64,000 nt of DNA from an uncultured virus (IMG/VR IMGVR_UViG_3300005662_000026) (Duplodnaviria > Heunggongvirae > Uroviricota > Caudoviricetes). Position numbers and translations under genes: made by a program. Location: IMG/VR virus record IMGVR_UViG_3300005662_000026, one strand, 5' to 3'. The stretch's first letter is position 1, and every line of letters starts with the position of its first letter. Below are positions 26,267-64,000 of the stretch, in pieces. The notes under the pieces were generated by a model. The model ran no database searches. It saw nothing but the letters and a program-made list of their open reading frames with translations, and was not told the DNA's origin.

Positions 26267-26581
26267 ATGGATGCAACAACACTAACAATTGTATTATTTA
26301 TAGCAGGTACAATTATTGGACTTATTAGTTTTTTCTTAAGGACTTCTTACAATAATATTACTACCGGTCTAGATGAACTTAAGAATGACTTTCATACACA
26401 TAGAGAAGATCATGGTAAGTTAAAAGGGAAGTTAGAATTACTTGAACAAGAGCATAGATTAAAGTATCAGCTTATTCAAGAAGTAACTCAACAAGAAATT
26501 AAAAATATGGCCAGTAAAATTGGAGAACTATCAGATACAGTTGGTGAACTTGTTAAGTTTCAACTAAAACAAAATAAATGA
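26267..26581 (+). CDS. TM plus coiled-coil protein (lysis accessory?)
   Basis: N-terminal TM then heptad-rich helix; start moved to MDATTL. Confidence 0.55.
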   Translation: MDATTLTIVLFIAGTIIGLISFFLRTSYNNITTGLDELKNDFHTHREDHGKLKGKLELLEQEHRLKYQLIQEVTQQEIKNMASKIGELSDTVGELVKFQLKQNK

Positions 26582-27069
26582 ATTCAACACTTTTAAAAAC
26601 CGGAGATATTTTACATTGTAGTGGAAAAAGATTATTAAGTAGATTAATCAAGAAAGCAACAAAGTCAAAGTATTCTCATACTGCATTATTTATTGAAATA
26701 TGGGGACAACCCTATGTAATAGATGCACAAAAAGATGGTGTAAATTTAAGACCTTGGAAAGATTGGTTGGATATGTATAATTATGATATAACTGTACATA
26801 GATCAAGTGATGTTGTCAATGAGAAAACATTTGCACAAAGAGCATTAACTAAAGTTGGTCATACAGCATATGACTTTGAAGGATTGCTAGTAAGACAACC
26901 AATAGAATTAGTTACAGGAGAATGGGTAGAAAAAGGAGACACAACTAGACAAATGTATTGCTCAGAGTATGTTGCATGGGTATATGGAATAGAAAAGGCA
27001 TTTAGATTTTCTCCTCAAGATTTATATGAGTGGTGTAAAACTCATTACTTCTATGAAATAGCAATTTAA
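26578..27069 (+). CDS. Permuted papain-like NlpC/P60 (YiiX/YebB-type) amidase/peptidase
   Basis: LKTGDIL..SKYSHTAL (His) ... G..YD ... YCSEYVA (Cys after His). Confidence 0.8.
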   Translation: MNSTLLKTGDILHCSGKRLLSRLIKKATKSKYSHTALFIEIWGQPYVIDAQKDGVNLRPWKDWLDMYNYDITVHRSSDVVNEKTFAQRALTKVGHTAYDFEGLLVRQPIELVTGEWVEKGDTTRQMYCSEYVAWVYGIEKAFRFSPQDLYEWCKTHYFYEIAI

Positions 27070-30496: not shown

Positions 30497-31012
30497 ATGT
30501 ATACTAAACTATTTGACATACAGAATGGAGTAGTAGTACCAACAGAACACTGTTATACTCTACGTACTCTTAAAAACATAATGGAAAAGTATCCTGATAA
30601 CTATCTTAAGATATATCAGTACTTATTCTATATGACATGTCCTAATCCAGATTCTAATCCATTCTTTCATACTCCTGAGATAGATAAAGAAGAAATTATT
30701 ATAGAGGAGATAGAAGCAGATTTTTCTACAGAAGATGAAGCAATTAGGAATGCATTAAGATTCTGTGAAGATATGTATAGTACTGCAACATCTAGAGCAT
30801 ATAAAGGTATGGCCTCAATGTTAGATAGATTAGCTAGATACATGGAAACTACAAGTATTACTGCAGGTAGAGATGGAAATATAAATTCATTGATTGCTGC
30901 AGCTAAAAACTTTGATCAGATTAGAGCTTCATTTAAGGGTGTATACAAAGATCTACAGGATGAGCAATCAAGTAAAGTACGTGGTGGAATTGGTATGGCT
31001 TATGATCAATAA
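30497..31012 (+). CDS. Conserved protein upstream of TerL (possible terminase small subunit)
   Basis: 171-aa helical protein ending KVRGG.GMAYDQ; function inferred from position. Confidence 0.5.
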   Translation: MYTKLFDIQNGVVVPTEHCYTLRTLKNIMEKYPDNYLKIYQYLFYMTCPNPDSNPFFHTPEIDKEEIIIEEIEADFSTEDEAIRNALRFCEDMYSTATSRAYKGMASMLDRLARYMETTSITAGRDGNINSLIAAAKNFDQIRASFKGVYKDLQDEQSSKVRGGIGMAYDQ

Positions 31013-31013
31013 T

Positions 31014-31346
31014 ATGGAAAAAGAAATTAAAATACCTATCTATGGAGGAAAGATTATATTTATATATGGTGAGTTATCACATGTAAAAGATAAATATAAT
31101 TTAAACTTTAATCCAAATGACTATGATGCAGTTGTGTTTGATGTTGAAGAAAAGGATCAGTTTATATTAGCATTTTCAGTAATTAAAGAATCTACATTAA
31201 TGCATGAAATAATACATCTAGTAAATAATATTTTTAAAAGTAGAAATATAAAACTTGATATTGATAATGATGAACCTCAAGCATATTTAGGAGGGTGGAT
31301 TGCAGATGAATTATATACTTTTATTAAAGAGTCAATAAACAAGTAA
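31014..31346 (+). CDS. Small zincin-like (HExxH) protein
   Basis: TLMHEIIHLV...NDEPQAYL; start moved to MEKEIKIP. Confidence 0.65.
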   Translation: MEKEIKIPIYGGKIIFIYGELSHVKDKYNLNFNPNDYDAVVFDVEEKDQFILAFSVIKESTLMHEIIHLVNNIFKSRNIKLDIDNDEPQAYLGGWIADELYTFIKESINK

Positions 31347-39403: not shown

Positions 39404-40414
39404 ATGGAATTTACACACGTAGAAGTATTTAATACTAACAAGAGCAACAAGATCTCTATCAAGCCTTACTTTGACAACTCAATGTCAAATATGGGATTAG
39501 AAAATTATGGTCAATCATTATTTGATGGAGTTAAACATTTTGAACAACTAGCATGTCTAGAGCAAAATGGAGTAATAAGATATGTAACAGGGTTAAATGA
39601 ATTTGCACCTGAGATTAAATTATTACCAACAGAACAAAGAGAAGCAAAAGTAAAACAGATTAGAATTGCTGTTGCTGAATTAGAAAGAGAGTTAGCAGCT
39701 AACATATTAGATGTTGAGAGCCCAACTTTCTGGAATGATGTTAAACTATTAAGACCAGACAATAAAGAATTCTGGAATAAGATTAACATGTCATGTGGTA
39801 ATGAACCAGTGTATTTAGACCCTACTAATCCATATGATAGAATTAAATTATATGCTGTTGAAGCAGGTGGATTTTCACTTGTATCAAGAAGCTATGATGA
39901 TGCTAGATCAAAAGCAGTACCACCAAAATTTTACTTAGATAAAGTAACTGAAACAAGTGGTATCAAAACTGAATACAAAAAACTTAAAAATAAAGCTCTT
40001 GCTGAGTTACAAAAATTGTTTGATAAAAACAGTACTAAATTATTTTACATTGCTAAGTCAGTAGATACAGCAAGTGTACAGTATAAAAAACATACACCAA
40101 ATGATGTTATTTATGATAACATGGATAGACATATCAATGGTGAAGGTACAGAAGGTAATAAAGAAAGAGCAGCAAAAGGATTCTTAGATGCAGCAGCTTT
40201 AGATATGGAAACATTAAAAATTAAAGCAATTGTAAAAGATTCCATATTTTTTAAGTATATTATTAATAAGTCAGATGGTTATATCTATCATGCTAAATCA
40301 AATAGCTTGTTAGGTAGAAATGTTTCTGATGTAATTGAGTTCTTGAAAAACCCTTTAAATGAGGATATTTTAAAAGACTTAAACACACAAGTTGAAAAAG
40401 TGTGGAATATGTAA
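39404..40414 (+). CDS. Conserved head-module protein downstream of MCP
   Basis: 336-aa ORF with AAACCAACA leader. Confidence 0.7.
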   Translation: MEFTHVEVFNTNKSNKISIKPYFDNSMSNMGLENYGQSLFDGVKHFEQLACLEQNGVIRYVTGLNEFAPEIKLLPTEQREAKVKQIRIAVAELERELAANILDVESPTFWNDVKLLRPDNKEFWNKINMSCGNEPVYLDPTNPYDRIKLYAVEAGGFSLVSRSYDDARSKAVPPKFYLDKVTETSGIKTEYKKLKNKALAELQKLFDKNSTKLFYIAKSVDTASVQYKKHTPNDVIYDNMDRHINGEGTEGNKERAAKGFLDAAALDMETLKIKAIVKDSIFFKYIINKSDGYIYHAKSNSLLGRNVSDVIEFLKNPLNEDILKDLNTQVEKVWNM

Positions 40415-40666: not shown

Positions 40667-42067
40667 ATGGCAAGTAAAATAAATCCAAAAGGGATATTCA
40701 AGTCTAACTCAAGATCTAAAGGCCCAAATCCAAAAGGTATAAATCCAAAAGGAGTATATAAAGCACCAGCTAAACCTAGAGTTAATCCAAAAGGAATTAA
40801 TCCTACAGGTATTGGACCTAATAAAGATGGAATTAATCCTGGAGGAATTAAGAAACCAGTTACTCAATCTAGTACACCAAGAACTAGAGCTGGAGTATCT
40901 AAAGGAAATACACCAGGTACAGCTGCAAAATATGCTCAAAAAAAACCTATTACACAAACTCAATCTACAAGAACTAGAGCAGGTGTAACAAAAGGAAATG
41001 CTCCTGGTAAAGCTGCAGGTATGAGATCTCAAAAGTTATCTAATCAAAAAATGACTTTATCTCAATTAGAAAATGCTGCATCTAAAAGATATAAACCATT
41101 AGGTGCAGATGAGTTATCTAAAACTAGTAAAACTGTTACTGAAGGTGCTAATAAACTTTTAAAAAAGACAACTGAAAAAGCTAAAGCTAGCGGTATGGAT
41201 TTACCTAAAAGTGGAAGAAAAAATGTAACAGCACCTAAAGCTTTTTTTAAAACTGATTTGACAAGATTTAAAAAAGTAGGTAAAAGAGCAATAATTGGTA
41301 CTGCTATTGCATTAGCAGGAAAAGCTTTATATGATAAAGTATCAGAAAAAAATAAAGCTACTGCACTTGCTAAAACTAAAGATGACGCTGCTAAAAAAGC
41401 TAAAGATGATGCAGCAAAAAAAGCTAAAGCAGACGCTGCTAAAAATCAAGCTGCTAAAAGTCAGGCTTTAAAAAATGAACTTGCTAAAAAAGAAGCTGCT
41501 AAAAAAGACACAGTTAAAAAATATGCAGGAGTAAAGGACAAATGGGGAAGATCAGCTTCAGATAAATGGTTTGGATTTGATCCTAAAACTAAAGCGTTTA
41601 CAACAGTGGATTTACCTAAAAAAACAGAAGTTAAAAAGTCTACTAATACAGTAAAACCAAAACCTGTTACTCCTAAACCTGCTCAAGTATCAGAAACTCC
41701 TAAAGTTGATAATACAACAGCAAGTACTACAAAAGAAGAAGTAGGAACAATTCCATTAAAAACTGTACCAACAGTTGAAGCACCAAAAGCTATTTTGTCT
41801 CCGGCACCTTCAAAAACTACATCAACTTCTCCAGCTTCCTCAACGCCAAGTTCTAGTACTATTAAAAAACCAGAACCTAAAGGTGGTTTAATTAATAAGA
41901 TTAGAGGTGCTGTTAATGAAAGTAGAGAAAGAAGAGTTGGTAGAGCTTTTGGTAGAGGTGATACTGAAAGAGCTGCTGAACTTGAAGCAAAAATAAAAAG
42001 AACAGAAAGTAAAATGTATATGAAAAAAGGTGGTGTTGTTAAAAAGACAAAACCTAAAAAGAAATAG
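40667..42067 (+). CDS. Lys/Ala/Pro-rich low-complexity protein
   Basis: GINPKG and TRAGV.KGN.PG repeats, one hydrophobic helix, AKDDAAKK repeats, C-terminal MKKGG. Confidence 0.75.
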   Translation: MASKINPKGIFKSNSRSKGPNPKGINPKGVYKAPAKPRVNPKGINPTGIGPNKDGINPGGIKKPVTQSSTPRTRAGVSKGNTPGTAAKYAQKKPITQTQSTRTRAGVTKGNAPGKAAGMRSQKLSNQKMTLSQLENAASKRYKPLGADELSKTSKTVTEGANKLLKKTTEKAKASGMDLPKSGRKNVTAPKAFFKTDLTRFKKVGKRAIIGTAIALAGKALYDKVSEKNKATALAKTKDDAAKKAKDDAAKKAKADAAKNQAAKSQALKNELAKKEAAKKDTVKKYAGVKDKWGRSASDKWFGFDPKTKAFTTVDLPKKTEVKKSTNTVKPKPVTPKPAQVSETPKVDNTTASTTKEEVGTIPLKTVPTVEAPKAILSPAPSKTTSTSPASSTPSSSTIKKPEPKGGLINKIRGAVNESRERRVGRAFGRGDTERAAELEAKIKRTESKMYMKKGGVVKKTKPKKK

Positions 42068-42069
42068 TT

Positions 42070-42408
42070 ATGCCAAAAGATGCATGTTATAGTAAAGTAA
42101 AATCTTCTTATGCTGTGTTTCCATCAGCTAGAGCTTCACAGGCAATTGCAAAATGCCGTAAAGCTTCTGGTACTGTAAGAAAAACTGAAGAAGGTACTAA
42201 GCTAAAAAGATGGCAAGCAGAAAAATGGCAAGATACAAAATCTGGAAAAGCTTGTGGAGCCGGTGGTAAAAATGAATACTGCCGGCCTACTAAGAAAGTA
42301 TCTAAGGATACACCAAAGACTAAGTATGAACTTACCCCTTCTAAACTAGCTGCTAAGAAAGCTGAGAAGTCTAAAGTAGGTATGGGTAACAGAGTTAAAA
42401 AAGCATAA
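42070..42408 (+). CDS. Basic phage protein (DUF5872-like)
   Basis: KDACY.KVK..Y.VFPSA.AS...LKRW..EKW...CG...YCRP. Confidence 0.6.
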   Translation: MPKDACYSKVKSSYAVFPSARASQAIAKCRKASGTVRKTEEGTKLKRWQAEKWQDTKSGKACGAGGKNEYCRPTKKVSKDTPKTKYELTPSKLAAKKAEKSKVGMGNRVKKA

Positions 42409-42410
42409 CT

Positions 42411-43064
42411 ATGGCAACTCTAAAAACAAAAAAAGTTAAAGTTACTGCAGGTAATGAAAAGCATGTAGTTTATAAAAAGACTACAAAAACTGGTGAAGGA
42501 AAAGTTGGTCATATAATGGTTAACCATCCTACTAAGGATAAAGGTCAGTGGGATACAATAGATCTTACTGCAAAAGGAAGAGCTAAAACAATTAAACAGG
42601 GAGTTGCTGCTACTAAAAAGTGGCATAAAGATAATCCTGATTATAAATATAAAGGTAATACAATGGCAAAGACAAGAGCACAACAAGCAGCAACTGCAAT
42701 AGCAATGAAGAAAGCTGGTAAGAAACCTAAGAGTTTACCTAAAGCTCAAACTGGAGGTGGAGTTATTATAACACCTAAAGGGAAAATAGTACGTGGTACA
42801 CCTGAGAAAAAAACTATGCCAGGTGGTCCAAGATATACTGTTCAAACTTTAGATACAGCAGGTTACTCAAAAGGTAAAAAAACTTTTGATCTTACCACTA
42901 AACCAAATATATCTATGGATCATGCAGGTCCTATTATTTTAAAGAAAGGTAAACCTGTAGTAAAAGTAACTAAAGTACCAAGAGCTAATGTTAATCAAAC
43001 AATTAGTGACTTGAAAAAAGGTTCTACTAAAACAACTGATCTTAGACCTAAAAAGAAAAAATAA
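42411..43064 (+). CDS. Basic protein, possibly a fusion of two small ORFs
   Basis: Internal MAKTRAQQAA start-like segment; LPKAQTGG motif. Confidence 0.65.
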   Translation: MATLKTKKVKVTAGNEKHVVYKKTTKTGEGKVGHIMVNHPTKDKGQWDTIDLTAKGRAKTIKQGVAATKKWHKDNPDYKYKGNTMAKTRAQQAATAIAMKKAGKKPKSLPKAQTGGGVIITPKGKIVRGTPEKKTMPGGPRYTVQTLDTAGYSKGKKTFDLTTKPNISMDHAGPIILKKGKPVVKVTKVPRANVNQTISDLKKGSTKTTDLRPKKKK

Positions 43065-43336
43065 TGGCAAAGACACCAGCTTGGACAAGATCTGAAGGTA
43101 AAAATAAAACTGGAGGATTAAATGCTAAAGGAGTAGCTTCTTATAGAAAAGCTAATCCTGGTTCTAAATTAAAGATGGCAGTTACAACTAAACCATCTAA
43201 ACTTGATCCTGATAGCAAAGATGCTAAAAGGAGAAAGTCATTCTGTGCTAGAATGTCTGGAGTAAAAGGACCAATGAAAGATGAAAAAGGAAGACCTACT
43301 AGAAAGGCTCTTTCTTTAAAAAAGTGGAATTGTTAA
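43064..43336 (+). CDS. Basic phage protein (DUF6321-like)
   Basis: AWTR.EGKN..GGLNAKG...RRKSFCARMSG...W.C. Confidence 0.65.
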   Translation: MAKTPAWTRSEGKNKTGGLNAKGVASYRKANPGSKLKMAVTTKPSKLDPDSKDAKRRKSFCARMSGVKGPMKDEKGRPTRKALSLKKWNC

Positions 43337-43347
43337 ATTTATATATT

Positions 43348-43599
43348 ATGAAAAAGTTAGGATGTGCTAAATGTGGTGGCACAATGAAGAAAATGAAACT
43401 TGGTGGGTCTGCAGTTAAAAAAGCACCTGTTGAAATGTATGGTATTCCTCAAGAAAATATGGGTACTTCTGGTCAAATGGGATTTGGTAGAAAAGGTGGT
43501 ACATTAAAAAAAGAACACCCTATTACTACATTCAGAAAAGCTGATGAAGCTAGAAAAGCAGTAGTAATGAAGTCATTGTCTAATTTTAAAAAGAAATAG
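43348..43599 (+). CDS. Basic protein with MKLGG and GRKGG motifs
   Basis: Start moved to MKKLGCAKCGG. Confidence 0.65.
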   Translation: MKKLGCAKCGGTMKKMKLGGSAVKKAPVEMYGIPQENMGTSGQMGFGRKGGTLKKEHPITTFRKADEARKAVVMKSLSNFKKK

Positions 43600-43601
43600 T
43601 C

Positions 43602-44021
43602 ATGGCAAAAGTTACCAAAAATAAAACAGTTAAAAAGGTTTTACCTAAAGCACAACTAGGGACACTTGTAAAAACAATTGGTAAATTTGCTAAACCAATT
43701 ATTAATGCAACAAAGTCAGCTATGGGGTACAGCAAACCTGCTGTTAAGACTATTACTAAAAGTCCTAAAGTAGTTGTTAGATCTGTTAATAGAACAGTAA
43801 AACCAGTTGCTAAAAAAATTAATTCTGAAGTTGGTAAAAAAGTACTTATAGATAGGCATCATGCTAAATTAGTAAATGCTAGCAATAAAACTGATAAAAA
43901 AGCTTTTAAGATTGCTGCAGGAACAGCAGCTGCAGTTCCAATTGCAGGTATTGTAAATGCTTCAATAAATAAAGCAAAAAAACAAAAAGTAGTAACTACT
44001 ATTAAACCTAAAAAGAAATAG
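43602..44021 (+). CDS. Basic protein with LPKAQLG motif
   Basis: 139 aa, K-rich, one hydrophobic helix. Confidence 0.65.
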   Translation: MAKVTKNKTVKKVLPKAQLGTLVKTIGKFAKPIINATKSAMGYSKPAVKTITKSPKVVVRSVNRTVKPVAKKINSEVGKKVLIDRHHAKLVNASNKTDKKAFKIAAGTAAAVPIAGIVNASINKAKKQKVVTTIKPKKK

Positions 44022-44023
44022 TC

Positions 44024-44404
44024 ATGGCATCAAGATCAGTTAAAACATCTTGCAAAAATACTAAAGTAAGATCAGCTTCAGGTACATGTGTACCTGAAAG
44101 ACCTACCATGAAAGAAGGTGGTAGTAGTCCATTTGGTATTCTATCTATTATAGCTGGTATAGATAATAATCCTGGTAAATCACAAGCAGATAGAATTGCT
44201 GGTGCAAAAATGAATAAAGCCCGTGCTAATAAAATGGCTAAAGGTGGTTCAGTACATCCAGGTTTTAAAGCTGTACAATCTAAGATTGCTGCTAAACAAG
44301 GAATTAGTAAAAAAGCTGCTGGAGCTATATTAGCATCATCAACTAGAAAAGCTAGTGCTAAAGCTAAAGCTGCTAACCCAAGACTTAAACGTGTAAAAGG
44401 ATAA
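44024..44404 (+). CDS. Basic protein with MKEGG and MAKGG motifs
   Basis: HPGFKAVQSKIA..AGAILASSTRKAS..NPRLKRVKG. Confidence 0.7.
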   Translation: MASRSVKTSCKNTKVRSASGTCVPERPTMKEGGSSPFGILSIIAGIDNNPGKSQADRIAGAKMNKARANKMAKGGSVHPGFKAVQSKIAAKQGISKKAAGAILASSTRKASAKAKAANPRLKRVKG

Positions 44405-53021: not shown

Positions 53022-53689
53022 CAACAATTGGAGAAGCAATATCAAGAGTAAGAAATGCTCTTAAAGCAGTTAAAGAAGATCCATTCTTAACTGATAGAAC
53101 AATTTATTTTGCAATATCAAAGTATGGTAAAGCTTTATTAAAAAGAGAAGATAATCAGAATAGACTTATGAAAATAAGTTCTATATTTTCTGTATTAACT
53201 TATGTTGAGTTAATTGACATTGATAAAGTTGAAGCAGGATGTGCAGGTATTACATCAGGTTGTTACATTAAAAGAACTAAAGAAAAACTACCTAAGTTTT
53301 TTGATGGTTTAAATGGACCACTTATCCGTACTGTATCATCATTAGATACATCAGTAGAATTATTTAGAACAGATCCTGGAACTTATTCTTCTATGACTAA
53401 AGTAAATAGTTTTAAGTATAACAACAAGAAATATTTTTGGTATTTAAATGGATACTTATACTTACCTAATGTACCTTGGGAAGCAATTAAAGTGGAAGGT
53501 GTATTTGAAGATAACATATCAGGTTTTACCTGTGATACTTCAGAGGAGTGCAAATTTAGAAATGATGACCAATTGCCTTTCCCAGATTATTTATTTGGTG
53601 AGATTGAGCAATATGTGTTAAAAGAATTAACTATGTCTATCAATGTACCAAGCAATGGACCTGATGATAGTCAAAACTCATTAAGATAA
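53018..53689 (+). CDS. Tail ring/tubular protein
   Basis: KRTKEKLPK, YFWYLNGYLY, VEGVFED; position before the muzzle. Confidence 0.65.
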   Translation: MTTIGEAISRVRNALKAVKEDPFLTDRTIYFAISKYGKALLKREDNQNRLMKISSIFSVLTYVELIDIDKVEAGCAGITSGCYIKRTKEKLPKFFDGLNGPLIRTVSSLDTSVELFRTDPGTYSSMTKVNSFKYNNKKYFWYLNGYLYLPNVPWEAIKVEGVFEDNISGFTCDTSEECKFRNDDQLPFPDYLFGEIEQYVLKELTMSINVPSNGPDDSQNSLR

Positions 53690-54204
53690 TGGATTTTAAT
53701 TATACACTTAACTCAACAAAAATATGTTGTAGATGTAAAAATGAATTTCCATTAACTACAGAATTTTTTCATGCAGCTAAGTTTCTTGCTGATGGTTTCA
53801 ATAGTCATTGTAAAACATGTAGAAAAAAAAGTTACCATTTAAGAAGAACTCCTATACAAGATTTAGAAAAAACTTTAAGTCAAAGATTTAGTGATTTAAA
53901 ATCAAGGACTAAAAAGAAAAGATTAAATTATGGTGTTGAATTAGATTTTGATGTAAAGTATTTAATGGATTTATGGGAAAAACAATCAGGTAAATGTGCT
54001 ATATCTAACATAGATATGACATATATACTTTACAATGGAGCAGTTAACACAAATGTTAGTGTTGATAGAAAAGATTCATTAAAGGGTTACACTAAAGAAA
54101 ATATACAATTAACATGTGTTATAATTAATAAAATGAAACTTGATTTAACAATTGAAGATTTGACATATTATTGTAAACAAATAATTAAAAATAATGGATT
54201 TTAA
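53689..54204 (+). CDS. Free-standing His-Me finger (HNH/EndoVII-like) homing endonuclease
   Basis: C..C/C..C Zn finger; LWEKQ.GKCAIS; SVDRKDS.KGYTKENIQL.C..IN.MK. Confidence 0.8.
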   Translation: MDFNYTLNSTKICCRCKNEFPLTTEFFHAAKFLADGFNSHCKTCRKKSYHLRRTPIQDLEKTLSQRFSDLKSRTKKKRLNYGVELDFDVKYLMDLWEKQSGKCAISNIDMTYILYNGAVNTNVSVDRKDSLKGYTKENIQLTCVIINKMKLDLTIEDLTYYCKQIIKNNGF

Positions 54205-55222: not shown

Positions 55223-58200
55223 ATGGCAAAGAAAAATATACAAAATACAAGTCAGAATGAAACTAATACTTTTGTAAAAGGATTAAATAAAGATTCTGAT
55301 CCTACGTTTATTTCAGAAGGTATGTGGACACACGCACGTAATGCTGTGAACAATACACTTGAAGGTAATATAGGAACTTTATCAAATGAAACATCTAATG
55401 TATATTGTGCAGAAGCAGGAGCTACATTATTAGGTAAAAAATATATTATTGGTACTATTCATTTATATTCTGATAAGTGGGTAATATTTACAGTAGCTTA
55501 TCCTAACAGTGGTGTAGGATTACCTACAGGACATGAAATAGGTTTATTTGAAGAAGATACTTGTAAGTATAGAATTATTGTACAAGATGCTTGTTTAAAC
55601 TTTGATAAGAGATATTTAATCACTGGTGCATCAAGAGAGAAAGAAGATTGCTCTTGGGCAGTATATTTTGCTGATGGGAACAATCCTGATAGATATATAA
55701 ATATTGGTGATGATGCATTATGGCCAGGTTCTACTTACTTATGGATTGGAAACAATACATACAGTAATGGTGTTACTGATATACAATGGCCAGGTGTACA
55801 ATGGAATCAAATATGTCATACTGATGGATGTCAACAAACTAGTCCCGGTGTATGGCCTCCTGGATGTCCTGAACCTAATGCATGTATAACTTGTGTGGAT
55901 GATACAACATTAAATTGTGAAGATTTAAGATTAGCAAGATTAATGAGTACGCCAACTATACAAGTTAAACCAGCTGTTGGAAGTGGTGAATTAAGAAATG
56001 GTTCTTACTTTGCTGTTATTGCGTATACTATTAAAGGTCAGAAAGTTACAGATTATTTTTCTCCAAGTAATACACAACCTATTTGGAATAAGAATGATGT
56101 ACAAGGAAGTATTGATATTTTAATTGATGCAGACAATGTACACTTTGATGAATTTGAACTTATAGTAGTGCAGATTATTAATCAAGGTGCTGTAGCTAAA
56201 AGAATAGGTTTATATTCTACAAGTACAAATGTAGTGCACTTAGATCAGATTAAAGATTCATTAATTACAATTCCTATTGAGCAAATACCAATTAGGAATA
56301 TTGTATATGAAACATCAGATCAAATTACTGAAGTTAACAATTACTTGTTAAGAATTGCACCTAGGTCTAAGTTTGATTTTAACTATCAACCATTAGCTAA
56401 CCAAATACAAACTCAATGGGTATCTGTAGAATATCCTTCTAACTATTATGTTGAAGGAGGAAGTAATACAAGTTACTTAAGAGATGAAGTATATACATTC
56501 TTTATAAGATGGGTATATAGTACAGGTGATAAGTCTTCATCATATCATATACCAGGTAGAGCTCCACAGACATTCCAAATACCAGGTACATCTTCTATAG
56601 TATCTGAAACTGCTACTAATGTAGATTTCAATACACTAGAAACTGATGATAAAGTATTTGAGGTATATAATACAGCAAGTGTACTATCTACTCCTGGTAC
56701 TGTATTACCAGATGGGGGTATTGTTAGAGCAACTGGAAGAATGGGTTATTGGGAATCTACTGAAAGTTATCCAGATAACAGACCTGATATTTGGGATGCC
56801 TCATCACAATGTTGGACAGGAACTACTGATCCGCAATATGATTTATGTGGTAAACCAATTAGACATCATAAGTTTCCTGATAACTTTAACACAGCTTCAA
56901 ATACTGATTTAACAAATCATTATTCTCAAGGTGGTGCTAATATTAGATTAATGGGAGTTACCTTTGGTAATATTATTTTACCAAAAGATAATGATGGTAA
57001 TGATATACCTGGAATTGTAGGTTATGAAATACTAAGAGGTTCTAGAGAAGGTAATAGAAGTATTATTGCTAAAGGTATGATAAATAACTTAAGATCATAT
57101 AACATAAGAGGTAATAATACTCAAGGTAGAATAGGTTTATACCCTAACTATCCTTTTAATACTATTACTCCTATATCAGATACAATTGGTGGTAATGTTA
57201 CAGGACAAAATGATCCATATATAAAATTAACTGATAAGAACAATAATGTTATAGATCAATATGTACCATCTAATTTTGTTACATTTCACTCACCTGATAC
57301 TAATTTCAGAACACCATACTTATCTACTACAGAACTAAAACTATATGGTAGATTATCTGGACAATCTGTACAGTATTTCCAAGAGCCTGCAGAACATCCT
57401 AACTTAAAATTAATTGCAGATGCTGCAGTAATCTTAATGTTTATAGGTGGTGTTATTCAAACACTATTACAACTTACTGGTAAAACAAAAGTTAGTAGTC
57501 AAAAGTCAACTGCAGCTAACGTAACTACTGTAGCAGGTACTACATCACCAAGTGTTATTATTGCACAAACTGCCTTAGCTGTTGCAACTGCAACTTATGA
57601 TACTGCTATAACTACATACTATACAGGACTAGGTCCTATACTTGATATGTTTACAGGTGGTGCCGCTTTAAAAGCAATACAAGGTTCTTATCAAATTGCA
57701 TTAGACGCAGCAGCAGCAGCAGGAGCAATTTCTCCATCTAATGCTACATTTGAAAAAGAGTATAGTGCATATGAACTTTTACCTCCAGTAGTAGGTGCAG
57801 CTTTTGCTATTAAACAATCTGCATATTATTTTTCTGAAGGTGCTAACTCAACACTAAGAATAATTTATGCGGGTTTACCTTATAGACAATTTGCATTACA
57901 AGCAATAGCAGAAGGTTTTTATAGTTCATTTCAACCACCGGTTGCTTCTAACAGAAGAAGATTTAATATTGATGATAGTCTATATTTAAGTGATAATATA
58001 CAAACTGTTAAACCATATAGTGGTAACAACTATGTAATTAATAATCTTAAAAGACAAAAAACGGTTCTTGTAAGAACTACTAATAATCTTAAAAATAATA
58101 CTGGTCCAGACTTTATTAATGCTGACCAGTCATTAGTTACATTAGGTACAGCAATACAAGCTGGTGGTAATCTAGGTTTAAATTTAAACTTAGATATGGA

Positions 58201-60529
58201 AAATAAAAAAAGTAATGTTTTTAATTTACCTATAGCAAGTCACTATGCAGGTCTAAAAATAAAATTAAGAAATCAGTATGGACAATTAGATTCTATTAAT
58301 CAAATTCCAATTACACCATCTGAGCAAAAATTAAATTTTAATGGACAAAATACTACTAATCAAAGTATTAGTTTTTGGTGTACTATTAGTACTCCTTTAG
58401 GTCCAAGAGCTAAAGAAATATTTATTACAAAATTACAACAAACTCCAGTGTTTTTTGGAGGTGATACTTATGTAAATAGATATACAGAAAAGAATAATAT
58501 GTTCTTTTTCTATGACTGGTTATATGGTCAACCTGATGGATATGAGTATAATTACTTATTAAGAAATATGATTACTGAACCAAGGTTTTGGTTAAATAGT
58601 CAACAGTATGATACAAGTCATTTAAAACCATCTAACTGGTTAAATCCTTCTCAAGGTTCTGGTCCATTACCATCTGATTCATATAACCTTGATTATTTTG
58701 AAAGTACATCCCGTAGATATGATTATGCTTCTGATCAACCAACAGGTTTTCCTGATACATATCCAGGGGTATTAGGAATTAAAGATTCATATTTTTATTT
58801 AGCTAATTCTTCAGTAAGAGATTTCTTTGTTGAGTCAGATGTATTAGTTGATTTTAGACAACCAGGTATAGCAACATGGGAACAGCATTATGATCATAAT
58901 TCATATACTGATTTACCTACTATGTTTAATATGAATCCTGTAAATATTACTAGAGGAAATTATTACGCATATGATTATTCATTGAGTGTATCTAAAGTGT
59001 TTACTCAATATTTTTCACAAGGTAATTTACAGTCAAGATATTATAATCCTACGGTATCTCAGTTATGTTATACATATTATCCTGATAGAGTTGTTTATTC
59101 ATTACCACAACAAAATGCTTCATCTAAAGATTCATGGTTTGTATATCTAGTAAATAACTATAAAGAGTTTAAAAATAGAATTACCTCAATTAAAGCTTAT
59201 GCTAAAACAGGTATGTTTATTACATTTCAAAACTCTAGTCCATTAGTATATCAAGGTGTTGATACTTTACAAACAGATTTAGGTACTAAGATTACTATAG
59301 GTGATGGTGGTTTATTTGCTAATCCTCCACAAAATGTTACTATATCAGATACTGAATATGAATATGGTTCATCTCAAAATAAGTTTGGTGTAATTGCTAC
59401 TCCAGCTGGTATGTATTATGTATCTCAGAATCAAGGTAGAGTATTTGCATTTGAAGGTGGTCTTAAAGAAGTATCTCAACAAGGTATGAAATGGTGGTTT
59501 AGTTTATTCTTACCATATAAACTTACTGAGGACTTTCCTGATTATCCACATACAGATAATCCTGTAGCTGGTATTGGTACACAAGCAGTATACGATAACT
59601 ACAATGGTATTATATATTTCTGTAAAAAAGATTACAAGTTAAGAAGTGACTTACCTGCAAATACTAGTGTAGTATATGAACCATATGGTGATTACTTCTT
59701 AGTTGATGGTATTACTAAAGTAGAGCTGGGTAACCCACTTATATTTGAAAATGCATCATGGACTGCAAGTTATGACCCTAAGAGCTCTTATTGGGTATCT
59801 TACCATGACTGGCATCCTGACTTTGTAATGCCTGCAAGACAGTACTTTATGACTACTAAAGCAGGTAAGATATGGAGACATAATGTATCATGTAATAGTT
59901 ACTGTAACTTCTATGGTGTTCAACATCCATTTGAAGTTGAGATACCATTAATTACAGGTCAAACAGTTACTACTCTTAAATCTATGGAATACATTCTTGA
60001 ATGTTATAAAAACTCTACACTTAATTGTGTAGATCAATACCATGTTTTAGATTTTAACTTTGACAAAGCAGTAGTATATAACTCTGAGCAAGTATCTGGT
60101 TATTTGAATCTTAACTTGTTTCCAAAAAATAATATTACATTAGCTAATACATATCCTAAAGTTAATCCAACTTCAATAGATGTATTATTTGCTAAAGAGG
60201 AAAACAAATATAGATTTAATCAGTTCTGGGATATTACTAAAAATAGAGGTGAGTTCCCAATAGGTTCTAATTATCCTCCAACAGGACCATTAGTACCGGG
60301 CACTACAGTACTTGCTGGTAATTATACTCAAGAAGTAATATGGAATACACAATCAAATGGTTACATCAAAACATTAAATCCACTTAATTTGGATTATAAT
60401 AAGCAACAACTTGAAAGAAAGAAGTTCAGACATTATTTAAATTTCTTATATTTGAGTAAGACTGACTCTAAAGATGTCAACATGATTGTTAAATTAAGTA
60501 ATAGTAAAAATCAAATATCACTCAGGTAA
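55223..60529 (+). CDS. Tail stabilisation/muzzle protein (P22 gp10-like)
   Basis: 1768 aa; N.F.KGLNKD..P......A.NA N-terminus; WT.SY......WVSYHDW.P near the C-terminus. Confidence 0.75.
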   Translation: MAKKNIQNTSQNETNTFVKGLNKDSDPTFISEGMWTHARNAVNNTLEGNIGTLSNETSNVYCAEAGATLLGKKYIIGTIHLYSDKWVIFTVAYPNSGVGLPTGHEIGLFEEDTCKYRIIVQDACLNFDKRYLITGASREKEDCSWAVYFADGNNPDRYINIGDDALWPGSTYLWIGNNTYSNGVTDIQWPGVQWNQICHTDGCQQTSPGVWPPGCPEPNACITCVDDTTLNCEDLRLARLMSTPTIQVKPAVGSGELRNGSYFAVIAYTIKGQKVTDYFSPSNTQPIWNKNDVQGSIDILIDADNVHFDEFELIVVQIINQGAVAKRIGLYSTSTNVVHLDQIKDSLITIPIEQIPIRNIVYETSDQITEVNNYLLRIAPRSKFDFNYQPLANQIQTQWVSVEYPSNYYVEGGSNTSYLRDEVYTFFIRWVYSTGDKSSSYHIPGRAPQTFQIPGTSSIVSETATNVDFNTLETDDKVFEVYNTASVLSTPGTVLPDGGIVRATGRMGYWESTESYPDNRPDIWDASSQCWTGTTDPQYDLCGKPIRHHKFPDNFNTASNTDLTNHYSQGGANIRLMGVTFGNIILPKDNDGNDIPGIVGYEILRGSREGNRSIIAKGMINNLRSYNIRGNNTQGRIGLYPNYPFNTITPISDTIGGNVTGQNDPYIKLTDKNNNVIDQYVPSNFVTFHSPDTNFRTPYLSTTELKLYGRLSGQSVQYFQEPAEHPNLKLIADAAVILMFIGGVIQTLLQLTGKTKVSSQKSTAANVTTVAGTTSPSVIIAQTALAVATATYDTAITTYYTGLGPILDMFTGGAALKAIQGSYQIALDAAAAAGAISPSNATFEKEYSAYELLPPVVGAAFAIKQSAYYFSEGANSTLRIIYAGLPYRQFALQAIAEGFYSSFQPPVASNRRRFNIDDSLYLSDNIQTVKPYSGNNYVINNLKRQKTVLVRTTNNLKNNTGPDFINADQSLVTLGTAIQAGGNLGLNLNLDMENKKSNVFNLPIASHYAGLKIKLRNQYGQLDSINQIPITPSEQKLNFNGQNTTNQSISFWCTISTPLGPRAKEIFITKLQQTPVFFGGDTYVNRYTEKNNMFFFYDWLYGQPDGYEYNYLLRNMITEPRFWLNSQQYDTSHLKPSNWLNPSQGSGPLPSDSYNLDYFESTSRRYDYASDQPTGFPDTYPGVLGIKDSYFYLANSSVRDFFVESDVLVDFRQPGIATWEQHYDHNSYTDLPTMFNMNPVNITRGNYYAYDYSLSVSKVFTQYFSQGNLQSRYYNPTVSQLCYTYYPDRVVYSLPQQNASSKDSWFVYLVNNYKEFKNRITSIKAYAKTGMFITFQNSSPLVYQGVDTLQTDLGTKITIGDGGLFANPPQNVTISDTEYEYGSSQNKFGVIATPAGMYYVSQNQGRVFAFEGGLKEVSQQGMKWWFSLFLPYKLTEDFPDYPHTDNPVAGIGTQAVYDNYNGIIYFCKKDYKLRSDLPANTSVVYEPYGDYFLVDGITKVELGNPLIFENASWTASYDPKSSYWVSYHDWHPDFVMPARQYFMTTKAGKIWRHNVSCNSYCNFYGVQHPFEVEIPLITGQTVTTLKSMEYILECYKNSTLNCVDQYHVLDFNFDKAVVYNSEQVSGYLNLNLFPKNNITLANTYPKVNPTSIDVLFAKEENKYRFNQFWDITKNRGEFPIGSNYPPTGPLVPGTTVLAGNYTQEVIWNTQSNGYIKTLNPLNLDYNKQQLERKKFRHYLNFLYLSKTDSKDVNMIVKLSNSKNQISLR

Positions 60530-63500
60530 TGGGATTCAATAAGAAAGTATTATCTAAAGCTGTATCAGAATTAGGTAAAGCAAAAGCACCGGGTAAACCA
60601 AAAGATATAACAGTTGATCCAAGAGGTTATTGGAATCCAGCTAATCAAGGAGAACCCGTAAGAGTACCAGGTGGTGATGACATTAATGGTATGGAGATTA
60701 CAATGCATCAAGTTAGTCAACCTATATGGGCTCAACCTAATGTTGGACCAGGTGCTATAATGTACCCAGAAGAAAACCGTCATTTTCCAGGTGCATCTTA
60801 TGTAGATGAAACTCCTATAGCTAAAAAAGGTGGTACAGCAGGAAAATTATCTAGTGGTAATAAAACTGTTACTAAAGTAGTAAACATTAAATTTGACCTA
60901 CCTGATTTAAGTGGTGCTAAAAAAATTGATGATAAAGTTACTTTAGCAATGTCACCAGATAGCTCAGGTGTATTTACTATTGGTAAAGATGTAGAGAAAT
61001 TCTCAGGTATTAAAGAATCAGAAGTTAAAGCTGATATAGCAGCAGGAAAAGAAAGTCCTGAAGATGCTCTTATATATGGTTTAACTAATGTCATGAATGG
61101 AGGTAAAGATGTTTATCTATGGATAAATGGTTCAAGACTTCAAGGCATGGCTAAAAAAAATGGTGCTGATGAAGCTATTACAGAAGTTGTATCACATGAA
61201 GCAATACACTTAGCAAGACATTTAATAACAAGAGCTATAGCAAAAAAGAAAGGTTTAAATCTTAATAATGAAGATTGGATTAAACATGACTATGGTGCAG
61301 GTGAATATAACTGGCCAGCAGTAGGTGATGAAAACAAAGAGAATCCTATTGTACAAATAGATGAGGAATCATTTGCTACTGCAGAAGGACTAATTGTAGA
61401 ACAGATACTACCATACTTTAAAGAGATGGCTAAGAGCTATTTAAAAAGTACAGACAGTAAAGAATTTAAAAAAGGTGGTACACTTCAAAGTAAGAAGTAC
61501 TCTAAGAGTATGTCTGCTACTAATAAGTTAATGGCTAAGAACAAGTTATTCCAAAATAAAAAGAGTAAGATATTTGATCCTAATGCTGAGTTTCAACAAG
61601 GTGGAATAAAGACTAATCCTTGGTTATATACATATGATTTAGGAATGCCAAATTCAGAAGTAGTAGGTGGTGGTTTTGATACCCAATTTAAATCAGGAAT
61701 ACACGGAAGTTTATCTGGTGAGATACCATTATTTAATAGAAACTCACAACCATGGTTATCACAAAATGTTGGTATAGGCCGTGGTTATAAAGGTTTATAT
61801 GGTGATGTTACATTAAACAATTCATCTTCTGCAGGAAGTTTACTTAATCCAAGTTTAACTACTAGTTTACAATATAATAAAAACTTAGGTGATCATTATA
61901 ATTTTAGAGCTGGTTTATCTAATTTATCAAGTAAAGGTTCATATTTTAATCCAGAAATTAATGCTGGTATAACTTATAGTTTTAAAAAGGGTGGTTCTAA
62001 ACTAGGTCCTATTAATCTTAATCCAAATCCATTAAGCCACTATGAATTAAACTATGGTTTTAACTTACCAGTTAAACAAGATGGTGGTGAATCTGATTAT
62101 GAAGAACTAGAACTTACTGATGAAGAAATACAAGCATACAGAGATGGTGGTTATGTAGTAGAAGAAATACCTGAACAAGAAATAGGTGGTTATGTACAAC
62201 ATGAACTAGTTAAAGCACAAACTGGTTTAGAACAAAATGATTCAGATGTATATACATATGCAGGAAGACCAGATTCTTACTATAAGAAAGATGATAAAGG
62301 TCAATGGCTGATTAGTAATAAAGGAACAGGTAATAAGTTTATTCCTATTAAAGATCCAAAAGGTGATAGAGCAAAAATCTTAAATGCTGAAGCTAAAAAA
62401 AATGTACCAATGACAGATAGTCCTTATGCATTAGCAGCTTCAAATTTTGCTAATGATAATGGTACAGATTCTAAACAAGCATATATTGATAAATATCAAA
62501 AGTCACCTGAACTTGCAAAACAAAAAGTTGTAAAACAATTTAAGACAGATAAAGAACTTGCAAAAACAGCAGAATTTATAAATAGTGGAAAACTAGAAAA
62601 TTCAACAAATACAGATCAACAATTAGATCCAAGACTTATGGGTCCCGTAGGTGATAATACAAGAACTACAGCAGGCTTTAATGGCCAACAAGCTTTTGAA
62701 GGAGCCTTACGTTATAACTCACCAGAAAGTGTAGAAGAACGTAAAATACAAGCTGAGTGGGAAAAACAAAAATGGGATGAGTATGCAAAGAAGTCATTAT
62801 ATGATAGAGTTTTAGATAGAACACAAGCCTTTGCTGCAAACCCCTTTGTATTAACTGGTAATGTTTTATCAGGTAAACAAGGTTTTATTCCAGGAATGGG
62901 TAGAGGTTTATTAAATAAAGATAATCCTGAAGAATATGATAGATACCTCCAAGCTACTGGACAAGTAAAAGGTGAGGTTAGCTTAAGTGATATGCTTAAT
63001 TTTGCAAACCCTACTCACTGGGGAGCTAGTGCTGGAAATGAATTTAGTAAAGGTAATTATGGTCAAGGTGCAACGGAACTTGGTTTATCATTATTAGGTG
63101 TAGGTGCAGGTAGAGGTTTATTACAAGGTAGTAAAGCTCTTGCTCAAAGTTTAGGTAGAGGAGCTAAATATGTAGGTAAAGCAATGAATACAGCACCAAA
63201 ATTTTTACCTGGTGCAACATTAAACAATGCTATAAATGCAGGTTTTGCAGGTCATGGTTTAAATGAAATTGTTTCAGGTGATGTTGCTGAACCATGGAAG
63301 AAAGCAATGAAGAGTGGTAAAGGAATAGATTATGCAACTGCATTAGGTGAAAACGCCATGACTGCATTAGAACTTGCTCCATTAGTTGGACCTGCCGCAA
63401 AAGGTTTAATTGGAGGATTGAATGCAAGTAAAGAATCTATAATAGGTGCAAAAAATATTTTAGGTGATTATAGAAACATTGAGCAGTTAAGACTTGCTAA

Positions 63501-64000
63501 TCATTATAAAGATTTTAATACAGCAAGTAAAGCACATCCAACTATATTCAATGATAAAAAAGTATTTGATGCAACTAAAACTGAAGCAAAACAATTATTA
63601 AAAAAATATAAAAAAGACTTTACTGAAAACTTTGGAGCAGGTAAAGATGATGAAGTATTATTATATGGTGCTCATAATGATTTAAAAAATGCAGTTAAAA
63701 ATAAAAACTTTTTAGCAGAAGATGAATTTGCAAAATCAGCTGGATTAAAAAATGACTTAACAAATCAGGAAAAGTTTTTAGCAGATGCATATCAATTAGA
63801 ATACTCACCATACTTTAATAGAAATATACGTAATGGTAATCAAAAGTTTTCAGAATATTTAGCAGATGATTTTAACTCACTGATGAATAAAAATAAAACA
63901 GCTAGACCAGTACAAGTATCAAGAGTATCTGATTTTGATAGAAAAGTTAAAACATTAAGAAAGGGTACATCAGAACCAGAAATGGTACATTATAATGATC
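60529..64000 (+). CDS. Large multidomain virion cargo/polyvalent protein (partial, >1157 aa)
   Basis: Own translation: ATG overlaps the muzzle stop (TAATG) and the frame is open to the window end; HEAIH motif, beta-barrel-like segment, Gly-rich helices, ART-like start. Confidence 0.85.
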   Translation, partial: MGFNKKVLSKAVSELGKAKAPGKPKDITVDPRGYWNPANQGEPVRVPGGDDINGMEITMHQVSQPIWAQPNVGPGAIMYPEENRHFPGASYVDETPIAKKGGTAGKLSSGNKTVTKVVNIKFDLPDLSGAKKIDDKVTLAMSPDSSGVFTIGKDVEKFSGIKESEVKADIAAGKESPEDALIYGLTNVMNGGKDVYLWINGSRLQGMAKKNGADEAITEVVSHEAIHLARHLITRAIAKKKGLNLNNEDWIKHDYGAGEYNWPAVGDENKENPIVQIDEESFATAEGLIVEQILPYFKEMAKSYLKSTDSKEFKKGGTLQSKKYSKSMSATNKLMAKNKLFQNKKSKIFDPNAEFQQGGIKTNPWLYTYDLGMPNSEVVGGGFDTQFKSGIHGSLSGEIPLFNRNSQPWLSQNVGIGRGYKGLYGDVTLNNSSSAGSLLNPSLTTSLQYNKNLGDHYNFRAGLSNLSSKGSYFNPEINAGITYSFKKGGSKLGPINLNPNPLSHYELNYGFNLPVKQDGGESDYEELELTDEEIQAYRDGGYVVEEIPEQEIGGYVQHELVKAQTGLEQNDSDVYTYAGRPDSYYKKDDKGQWLISNKGTGNKFIPIKDPKGDRAKILNAEAKKNVPMTDSPYALAASNFANDNGTDSKQAYIDKYQKSPELAKQKVVKQFKTDKELAKTAEFINSGKLENSTNTDQQLDPRLMGPVGDNTRTTAGFNGQQAFEGALRYNSPESVEERKIQAEWEKQKWDEYAKKSLYDRVLDRTQAFAANPFVLTGNVLSGKQGFIPGMGRGLLNKDNPEEYDRYLQATGQVKGEVSLSDMLNFANPTHWGASAGNEFSKGNYGQGATELGLSLLGVGAGRGLLQGSKALAQSLGRGAKYVGKAMNTAPKFLPGATLNNAINAGFAGHGLNEIVSGDVAEPWKKAMKSGKGIDYATALGENAMTALELAPLVGPAAKGLIGGLNASKESIIGAKNILGDYRNIEQLRLANHYKDFNTASKAHPTIFNDKKVFDATKTEAKQLLKKYKKDFTENFGAGKDDEVLLYGAHNDLKNAVKNKNFLAEDEFAKSAGLKNDLTNQEKFLADAYQLEYSPYFNRNIRNGNQKFSEYLADDFNSLMNKNKTARPVQVSRVSDFDRKVKTLRKGTSEPEMVHYND

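Follow-up and report, generated by a model that had tools for sequence, protein, structure and literature searches.

The window considered here is a stretch of 64,000 nucleotides from an uncultured virus (IMG/VR record IMGVR_UViG_3300005662_000026), near the end of which a giant open reading frame (ORF), absent from the list of ORFs made for this DNA, starts at position 60529 on the + strand and continues past the window end. This post-muzzle ORF, so called from its place directly after the gene of the muzzle protein, encodes 1,580 amino acids (aa) in full and is built of modules that its relatives gain, lose and reorder at a short peptide tag ending in Gly-Gly. The account below is founded on its modularity, the exchange at seams, the conservation of the tag at the level of the peptide, the intact catalytic residues of the enzymatic modules and the co-occurrence of a candidate protease. 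We read the product as an ejected polyvalent cargo protein with a packaging tag that would double as a recombination seam and would be cut at some or all of the seams, a reading which, taken as a whole, we hold with middling confidence. The phage is a freshwater, crAss-like one: upstream of the ORF lie the genes for the muzzle, two ring proteins, capsid, portal and terminase, and these structural genes, with the Pfam match of the muzzle protein, bear out the crAss-like cargo position given to the ORF in the original prediction, which had been made from the letters and an ORF list. The ORF itself is confirmed as well, its full length being found in the genome record G000 (G000:C1:75479-80221), an incomplete record of 91,527 bases that stops short of the gene for the giant RNA polymerase (RNAP)-associated cargo protein.

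Modules of the post-muzzle protein are exchanged at Gly-Gly seams

Ninety-two viral loci yielded 67 distinct post-muzzle proteins (the complete ones 324-2,507 aa long) and 58 non-redundant ones, and the 1,653 pairs among the latter gave 92 unique clean insertions of at least 30 aa with well-aligned flanks. Both ends lay no more than 5 aa from a Gly-Gly in 52 of the 92, against 1.5 expected by sliding, and this bears out the earlier proposal that modules are gained and lost exactly at the Gly-Gly motifs. Counted per insert family the figure is 17 of 33 against 0.5 expected, control dipeptides at insertion ends scored 0-4, and 36 of 39 events within the close clade have both ends at such a place once AQxG is counted. 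Under a null restricted to positions with detectable junctions, a junction coincides with a tag in 72 of the 92 insertions against 15.3, it being understood for all these counts that insertion events share ancestry and are not independent. Direct repeats of the tag stand on either side of the insertions. Two strains, about 93% identical over the shared N-terminal modules, illustrate how recent the process is: P0049 has neither the zincin nor the beta cassette described below and carries a different insert at the next seam, and P0083 is without the acidic motif and an entire block of 984 aa; in other relatives the beta and 31-aa modules stand in reversed order. Breakpoints in identity profiles were less telling, with 91 of 295 lying near Gly-Gly against 35.4 expected, because divergence and exchange are mixed in such profiles, and the clean-indel tests were used instead.

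All eight motifs that had been proposed to delimit modules are present (starting at 60820, 61465, 61591, 61981, 62074, 62137, 62176 and 62215). Seven of them are seams, and the proposal fails for YRDGG (62137), which sits within an acidic motif, at a position that is Gly in 46 of 74 copies of that motif and at which none of the 92 insertions breaks. A ninth seam, SQGG at residues 1547-1550, lies outside the window. The features of the ORF, followed by three others in the window that the argument requires, are these:

60529..64000 (+): post-muzzle modular ORF, putative cargo; first 1,157 of 1,580 aa, a further 1,271 bases lying outside the window
60529..60819 (+): carrier module at the N-terminus (residues 1-97), which forms the family's constant head
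60820..60834 (+): seam tag AKKGG, placed by 10 pairwise comparisons at the left end of the zincin insertion
60835..61464 (+): cassette of a zincin-type metallopeptidase, with its HExxH at 61195-61209 and its third ligand, Glu280, at 61366
61465..61479 (+): seam tag FKKGG, right end of the zincin insertion
61480..61590 (+): basic mini-module, isoelectric point about 10, matched in 45 of the 58 family members, with 42-aa indels between tags
61591..61605 (+): seam tag FQQGG, from a clean-insertion comparison
61606..61980 (+): all-beta cassette with porin- or outer-membrane-barrel-like features, from language-model features only
61981..61995 (+): seam tag FKKGG, from a clean-insertion comparison
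61996..62073 (+): 31-aa mini-module (tag included), in 12 of 58; before the beta cassette in some relatives, after it here
62074..62088 (+): seam tag KQDGG, from a clean-insertion comparison
62089..62175 (+): acidic mini-motif containing YRDGG (62137), matched in 54 of 58; a second copy is the C-terminus
62176..62226 (+): doubled seam of QEIGG, a conserved 8-aa spacer and AQTG, from homologue comparison
62227..64000 (+): first part of the 984-aa block without seams (residues 567-1550), lost whole between tags in P0083
62851..63483 (+): Gly-rich segment, 17% Gly, ahead of the ADP-ribosyltransferase (ART); no strong transmembrane helix
63424..64000 (+): R-S-ExE ART cassette, residues ~966-1248, PF03496, Arg1132 at 63922
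55223..60529 (+): muzzle protein gene, 1,768 aa, PF25731 (crAss_MUZ) at E 3.5e-32, the upstream anchor
40667..44404 (+): clustered small basic genes that follow the capsid gene, tag-bearing by tag count, including DUF5872 and DUF6321
26578-27069: permuted papain-like C92 peptidase between holin-like and endolysin-like genes, close clade only

Gly-Gly as such is not enriched in the ORF, with 13 observed and 15.4 expected from its Gly content. The context motif occurs seven times against 1.0 in composition shuffles, a comparison that is partly circular in that the pattern is family-derived; the next two genes hold six against 0.7 and four against 0.65 (together 10 against 1.4), six small basic ORFs that follow the capsid gene hold four against 0.6 expected, and the 89 other ORFs hold three against 5.8 expected. 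The 127 distinct junction contexts give the consensus P-x-[YFAM]-[QK]-[KDE]-G-G, often doubled, in which the first Gly is fixed by the selection of the contexts. Since 174 different 18-base codings were found among 214 tags, the constraint is seen to act on the peptide. The first Gly shows a mild codon bias (GGT 0.73 against a background of 0.57), and the tag DNA would offer enough microhomology, we infer, for in-frame recombination. A site-specific DNA recombination site at the tags was rejected. The tag is a real, conserved feature and apparently an undescribed one: no description was found in the Creative Commons-licensed literature, subscription papers being outside that scope, nor in the available text of PMC10136315 and PMC13434306.

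Cassettes carried between the seams

Residues 25-98 of the N-terminal module are matched in 41 of the 58 non-redundant family members. The zincin that follows is an optional passenger, absent from most relatives, and its identity is supported by an HExxH motif invariant in 49 of 49 aligned sequences and a downstream Glu kept in at least 90%. In an AlphaFold2 model the folded core spans residues ~110-308 with a predicted local distance difference test (pLDDT) score of 90 and lies between the two tags, its disordered ends extending to both, so that here the tags fall outside the fold; the HExxH and the Glu ligand are both on helices following beta strands. In a structure comparison the best zincin rows were to YbeY (Z 4.0, root-mean-square deviation (rmsd) 5.0, 103 residues aligned) and were tied with unrelated rows, and Foldseek returned no match for the model at E<=0.001. 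The basic mini-module is lost singly in some relatives. For the beta cassette, Atlas gave feature hits of 0.93-0.96 to clusters of porins and outer-membrane proteins, with shared-feature counts that are low and under the tool's mark; no Pfam hit and no free-standing homologue of similar length was found, and relatives of the cassette occur in L017, L027 and P0083-P0086, in each case between tags.

The ART is identified by a PF03496 match just over the cut-off (E 3e-5; 23.9 bits against 23.4, a narrow pass) together with four catalytic residues, R1132, S1171, E1215 and E1217, that are invariant in 34 of 34 sequences. These correspond to the motif scheme of the R-S-E clade of ARTs, namely Arg, Ser-Thr-x and Glu-x-Glu; the last three residues (Ser1171, Glu1215, Glu1217) are encoded beyond the window. 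A sequence search of the domain against the PDB found no ART. The original prediction had this domain, too, delimited by Gly-Gly, which does not hold for this copy, in which the Gly-rich segment and the ART both lie within the seamless block; a tag follows 6-8 aa after the ART in six of nine close homologues. A crude hydropathy scan of the protein gave its best 19-aa values, 1.19, at residues 943-964 and 1461-1479, and none that was N-terminal.

That the protein family comprises several independent activities, as had been supposed, is borne out by the variety of Pfam domains in the homologues, of which 51 of 57 had a scan: SET (9), phage lysozyme (9, two of them just below the cut-off), VanY (3), ART-PolyVal (2), SLT (2) and amidase (1). 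SET methyltransferase cassettes, several of them N-terminal, stand in the post-muzzle proteins of the relatives L037, L038, L039, L040, L041, L065, L076, L081 and L089.

Packaging, cutting and competing explanations

The closer model for the tag is, in our view, the capsid-targeting sequence (CTS) of T4, which according to the available text of PMC8442874, PMC5694885 and PMC3012670 loads internal proteins and is then cleaved off, and T4 Alt is likewise described as an ART that is packaged, injected and trimmed at its two ends (PMC5694885, available text). The zincin of the window also occurs as a free gene, and 29 of the 46 homologues compared open with a short leader ending in Glu that on sequence resembles the T4 CTS; these genes reside in T4-like contigs carrying gp23 and the clamp loader. 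In L124 (5956-7392) the zincin and DUF5872, a domain also present in the window's tagged basic cluster, form one fusion with [ILV]-N-E seams, encoded immediately behind gp23 and close to an S77 protease that bears an intein, and in a second, weaker case, L123 (4651-8208), zincin, DUF5872 and small modules are joined at [ILV]-x-E seams; these strings, from T4-like or other large phages, may possibly be polyproteins cut by gp21. Of 24 distant ART homologues, 11 have the Gly-Gly tag in their first 30 aa, against 7% of interior windows, and DUF6321, free-standing in the window, follows a tag as part of a fusion in G006 and G007. The post-muzzle protein itself has no N-terminal leader of ~10 aa ending in Glu.

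On our reading, the ORF product would be a late-expressed, virion-packaged and ejected cargo working like a polyvalent protein. Its constant head and acidic tail would serve as carriers of interchangeable effectors, which in this copy are the zincin peptidase, the beta-barrel-like cassette, the small peptides of basic and acidic character and the Arg-type ART. The seam peptide would mark proteins for head loading, as the crassvirus counterpart of the T4 CTS, and because the tag brackets every module, short DNA homology from tag to tag would permit modules to be inserted, deleted and reordered in frame. Cutting at seams, on which we judge the case evenly poised for some or all of them, would take place either inside the head or during ejection, and the most plausible enzyme would be the zincin that the giant RNAP-associated cargo protein contains. 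A bolder reading, which we regard as tentative and rather unlikely, extends the scheme across Crassvirales including the gut phage crAss001: the Gly-Gly tag would load effector strings into the head, the giant-protein zincin would cut them, possibly just before the first Gly, into individual enzymes and peptides, and crAss-like and T4-like phages would share one pool of injected modules, each relabelling them with its own tag.

The giant-protein zincin (of the gp47 or phi14:2 gp65 type) is our candidate tag protease: its region was found in 34 of 44 records, in all nine near-complete ones and in crAss001 gp47, and the HExxH is intact in 20 of the 20 regions fetched; a possible part in processing had already been suggested for it (10.1101/2020.03.07.982082, available text). 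Other proteases were considered and set aside. The ORF's own zincin is missing from most relatives, the C92 peptidase is present in 6 of 45 records and 3 of 9 near-complete ones and so is not general, a 128-aa HExxH ORF (30960-31346), which sits between the small and large terminase genes, had a counterpart in none of 40 related records in a search without positive control, and a gp33-like protein showed no family by features.

The cargo protein C1 (gp45) of Bacteroides phage crAss001 is the obvious comparison, being encoded directly after the muzzle, packaged in the virion and proposed to be ejected (PMC10172136, available text). It shares with the ORF its gene position, a large, patchy protein and similar Gly-Gly peptides (some nine, chosen by eye), which stand at each end as well as between the small basic modules; it differs in having neither zincin nor ART and no detectable sequence similarity, a comparison of the ORF with gp45 giving no match at E<=1, none in the phage collection and no crAss cargo Pfam hit. 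Judged by sequence, then, the ORF product is not a C1 homologue, and the available text of the gp45 paper does not mention the tag. The gp45-like portal-binding domain is probably in the second gene downstream of the ORF, as is suggested, and only suggested, by a model of a domain there whose first Foldseek hit is gp45 (7QOG chain M; E 0.14, 24% identity) and which aligns with that chain by VIA at Z 4.8 and rmsd 5.4 over 96 residues, at rank 7 among tied rows; comparing the profiles of this domain and gp45 gave no significant match (probability 2.4%).

The tag might instead be an uncut docking or hinge peptide that binds the portal, the scaffold or another assembly protein or, in a variant, makes a flexible turn helping the unfolded chain through the tail, the product being ejected whole and its domains acting in tethered form, and we take this to be a serious contender, somewhat short of an even chance. 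The evidence from gp45 points both ways. Its resolved pieces, residues 214-245 and 425-552, occupy different compartments 420 Å apart with several Gly-Gly peptides between them, which speaks for cutting; the authors treat gp45 as one chain (PMC10172136, available text). Against cutting, piece 425-552 covers two Gly-Gly peptides, at 427-428 and 434-435, and the structural alignment extends to modelled residue 431, so that no cut was made after these Gly-Gly in the molecules seen. The deposited chain, on the other hand, has 126 residues against 128 in the paper's text and may possibly start at Gly427, the first Gly of its peptide, and a cut just before that Gly would fit a 126-residue fragment 427-552 and would also tolerate Gly-Gly-Pro. 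Moderate size discrepancies on a crAss001 virion gel are reported, gp45 being unnamed, in the available text of PMC6235969. Also on the side of an intact protein, no prohead protease family including S77 was found at E<=0.01 among 91 ORFs, each at least 100 aa long, in the complete relative G006, in a scan from which two antisense ORFs were excluded and which divergent S77 members could escape. The virion RNAP of phage N4 bears a zincin yet is packaged unprocessed, so that a co-packaged zincin does not imply cutting, and polyvalent proteins of plasmids and N4 are delivered intact (PMC5512222, available text). At real seams, 7 of 127 junction tags lack the second Gly and in 7 of 127 Pro stands right after Gly-Gly; leaders in another crAss-like lineage retain only the hydrophobic-x-Lys-Tyr half of the tag, and a basic leader without the Gly-Gly tag opens 13 of the 46 zincin homologues. 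The scaffold and capsid proteins have no end tags, 62% of the protein (residues 567-1550) has no seam inside, and the ART was inserted without a tag at either junction, the flanking segments adjoining in L005, L017, L027 and L006. Against an uncut tag stands the consideration that one per chain would be enough for docking, yet both flanks of each module are tagged, and that in T4-like phages the same modules come with Glu leaders and seams of the cut type.

Two further explanations dispense with the tag's or the protein's role in the virion. Tags could be neutral scars of recombination, duplication leftovers providing nothing beyond DNA microhomology, as the direct tag repeats flanking insertions and the mild codon bias of the first Gly would allow; we find this improbable, the peptide being kept while its coding DNA varies, tags occurring N- and C-terminally in single-module genes as well as in unlinked basic genes, and similar peptides recurring in the distant crAss001 gp45. 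Less probable still, and by our estimate very nearly negligible, is that the product is an intracellular late effector merely located in the structural operon. The lack of sequence similarity to gp45 and the apparent presence of a gp45-like portal-binding domain two genes downstream speak for it, but the post-muzzle position is fixed and the stop and start overlap (the ATG of the ORF shares one base with the stop of the muzzle gene), lysozyme, SLT, amidase and VanY cassettes in relatives require contact with the cell wall, and the same zincin bears capsid-targeting-like leaders elsewhere.

Known systems, related lineages and neighbouring genes

Among known systems the polyvalent proteins, for which autoproteolytic release has been proposed (PMC5512222, available text), share with the ORF product the joining of unrelated enzymatic domains (zincin metallopeptidase, ART, lysozyme) in one polypeptide of the virion region, and this copy combines a zincin and an ART in one chain, in a phage late or virion gene context with variable architecture. 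It differs in carrying no Pfam polyvalent-specific domain and in having the zincin as an optional passenger, and for polyvalent proteins no conserved inter-domain tag is described, the word "glycine" occurring 0 times in the available main text of PMC5512222. T4's internal proteins, together with Alt, share with it the use of diverse effectors with only a short targeting peptide in common; the present tag, however, ends in Gly-Gly and not in Glu and is repeated within one chain, and the T4 CTS is cut by gp21, whereas no S77 protease was found in the crAss-like G006 and the capsid and scaffold proteins here are without end tags. The adenovirus protease and pS273R of African swine fever virus (ASFV) carry out di-glycine maturation cleavage of core or cargo precursors, which are punctuated by Gly-Gly sites as the ORF product is. 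The analogy with these viruses drawn in the original prediction is not supported in detail: the adenovirus consensus occurs at 1 of 127 junction tags, the second Gly is dispensable and Pro is tolerated after Gly-Gly. The scan of 91 ORFs of G006 found no clan CE cysteine protease, the C92 peptidase being the only papain-like gene, and the ORF product is a member neither of the T4 CTS system nor of the adenovirus and ASFV systems. What this analysis adds is a test made seam by seam, a T4-like parallel for these modules and the distribution of the candidate protease.

The seams provide a sequence rule for splitting crassvirus cargo proteins into modules, and the tag helps to list injected content, such as zincins, ARTs, SET domains, wall hydrolases and small peptides; if functional, it would be a crassvirus counterpart of the T4 CTS. 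In a cultured gut phage, crAss001, it can be tested whether gp45 is one threaded chain or cut pieces, and also what the conserved gp47 zincin does.

In another crAss-like lineage (L110:1099-6603 and L111:445-4503) the SLT, lysozyme and zincin each have a gene of their own, placed ahead of the terminase; half-tags stand at the N-termini and Gly-Gly tags close to the C-termini. In L118, where the zincin gene seems split or shortened, 7 of 19 ORFs, a run of unrelated small genes, begin with a T4-CTS-like leader, as do about 5 of 14 in L121. The presumed scaffold of crAss001, gp31 (L094:7102-8271), has at its end a Gly-Gly and then a tail of 17 residues, in contrast to its homologue in the window. 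The gene that follows the post-muzzle ORF (L001:8283-10553, 757 aa) contains 17 Gly-Gly against 6.1 expected, some of them 10-20 aa apart, and also terminates in the acidic motif of that ORF. The 1,580-aa protein is recorded in identical form on four contigs, possibly from one sample, and six freshwater DNA sequencing runs, which may be the source, contain 98-100% of the words searched, no RNA run being listed. The gp33-like gene after the capsid gene (39404-40414) is 92-99% identical among relatives, conserved like the capsid protein, and is a candidate for a tag-binding assembly factor. Between the two ring genes lies a Cys-rich ORF of 171 aa (53689-54204), absent at that place in the relatives L002-L006, which by eye looks like a homing endonuclease.

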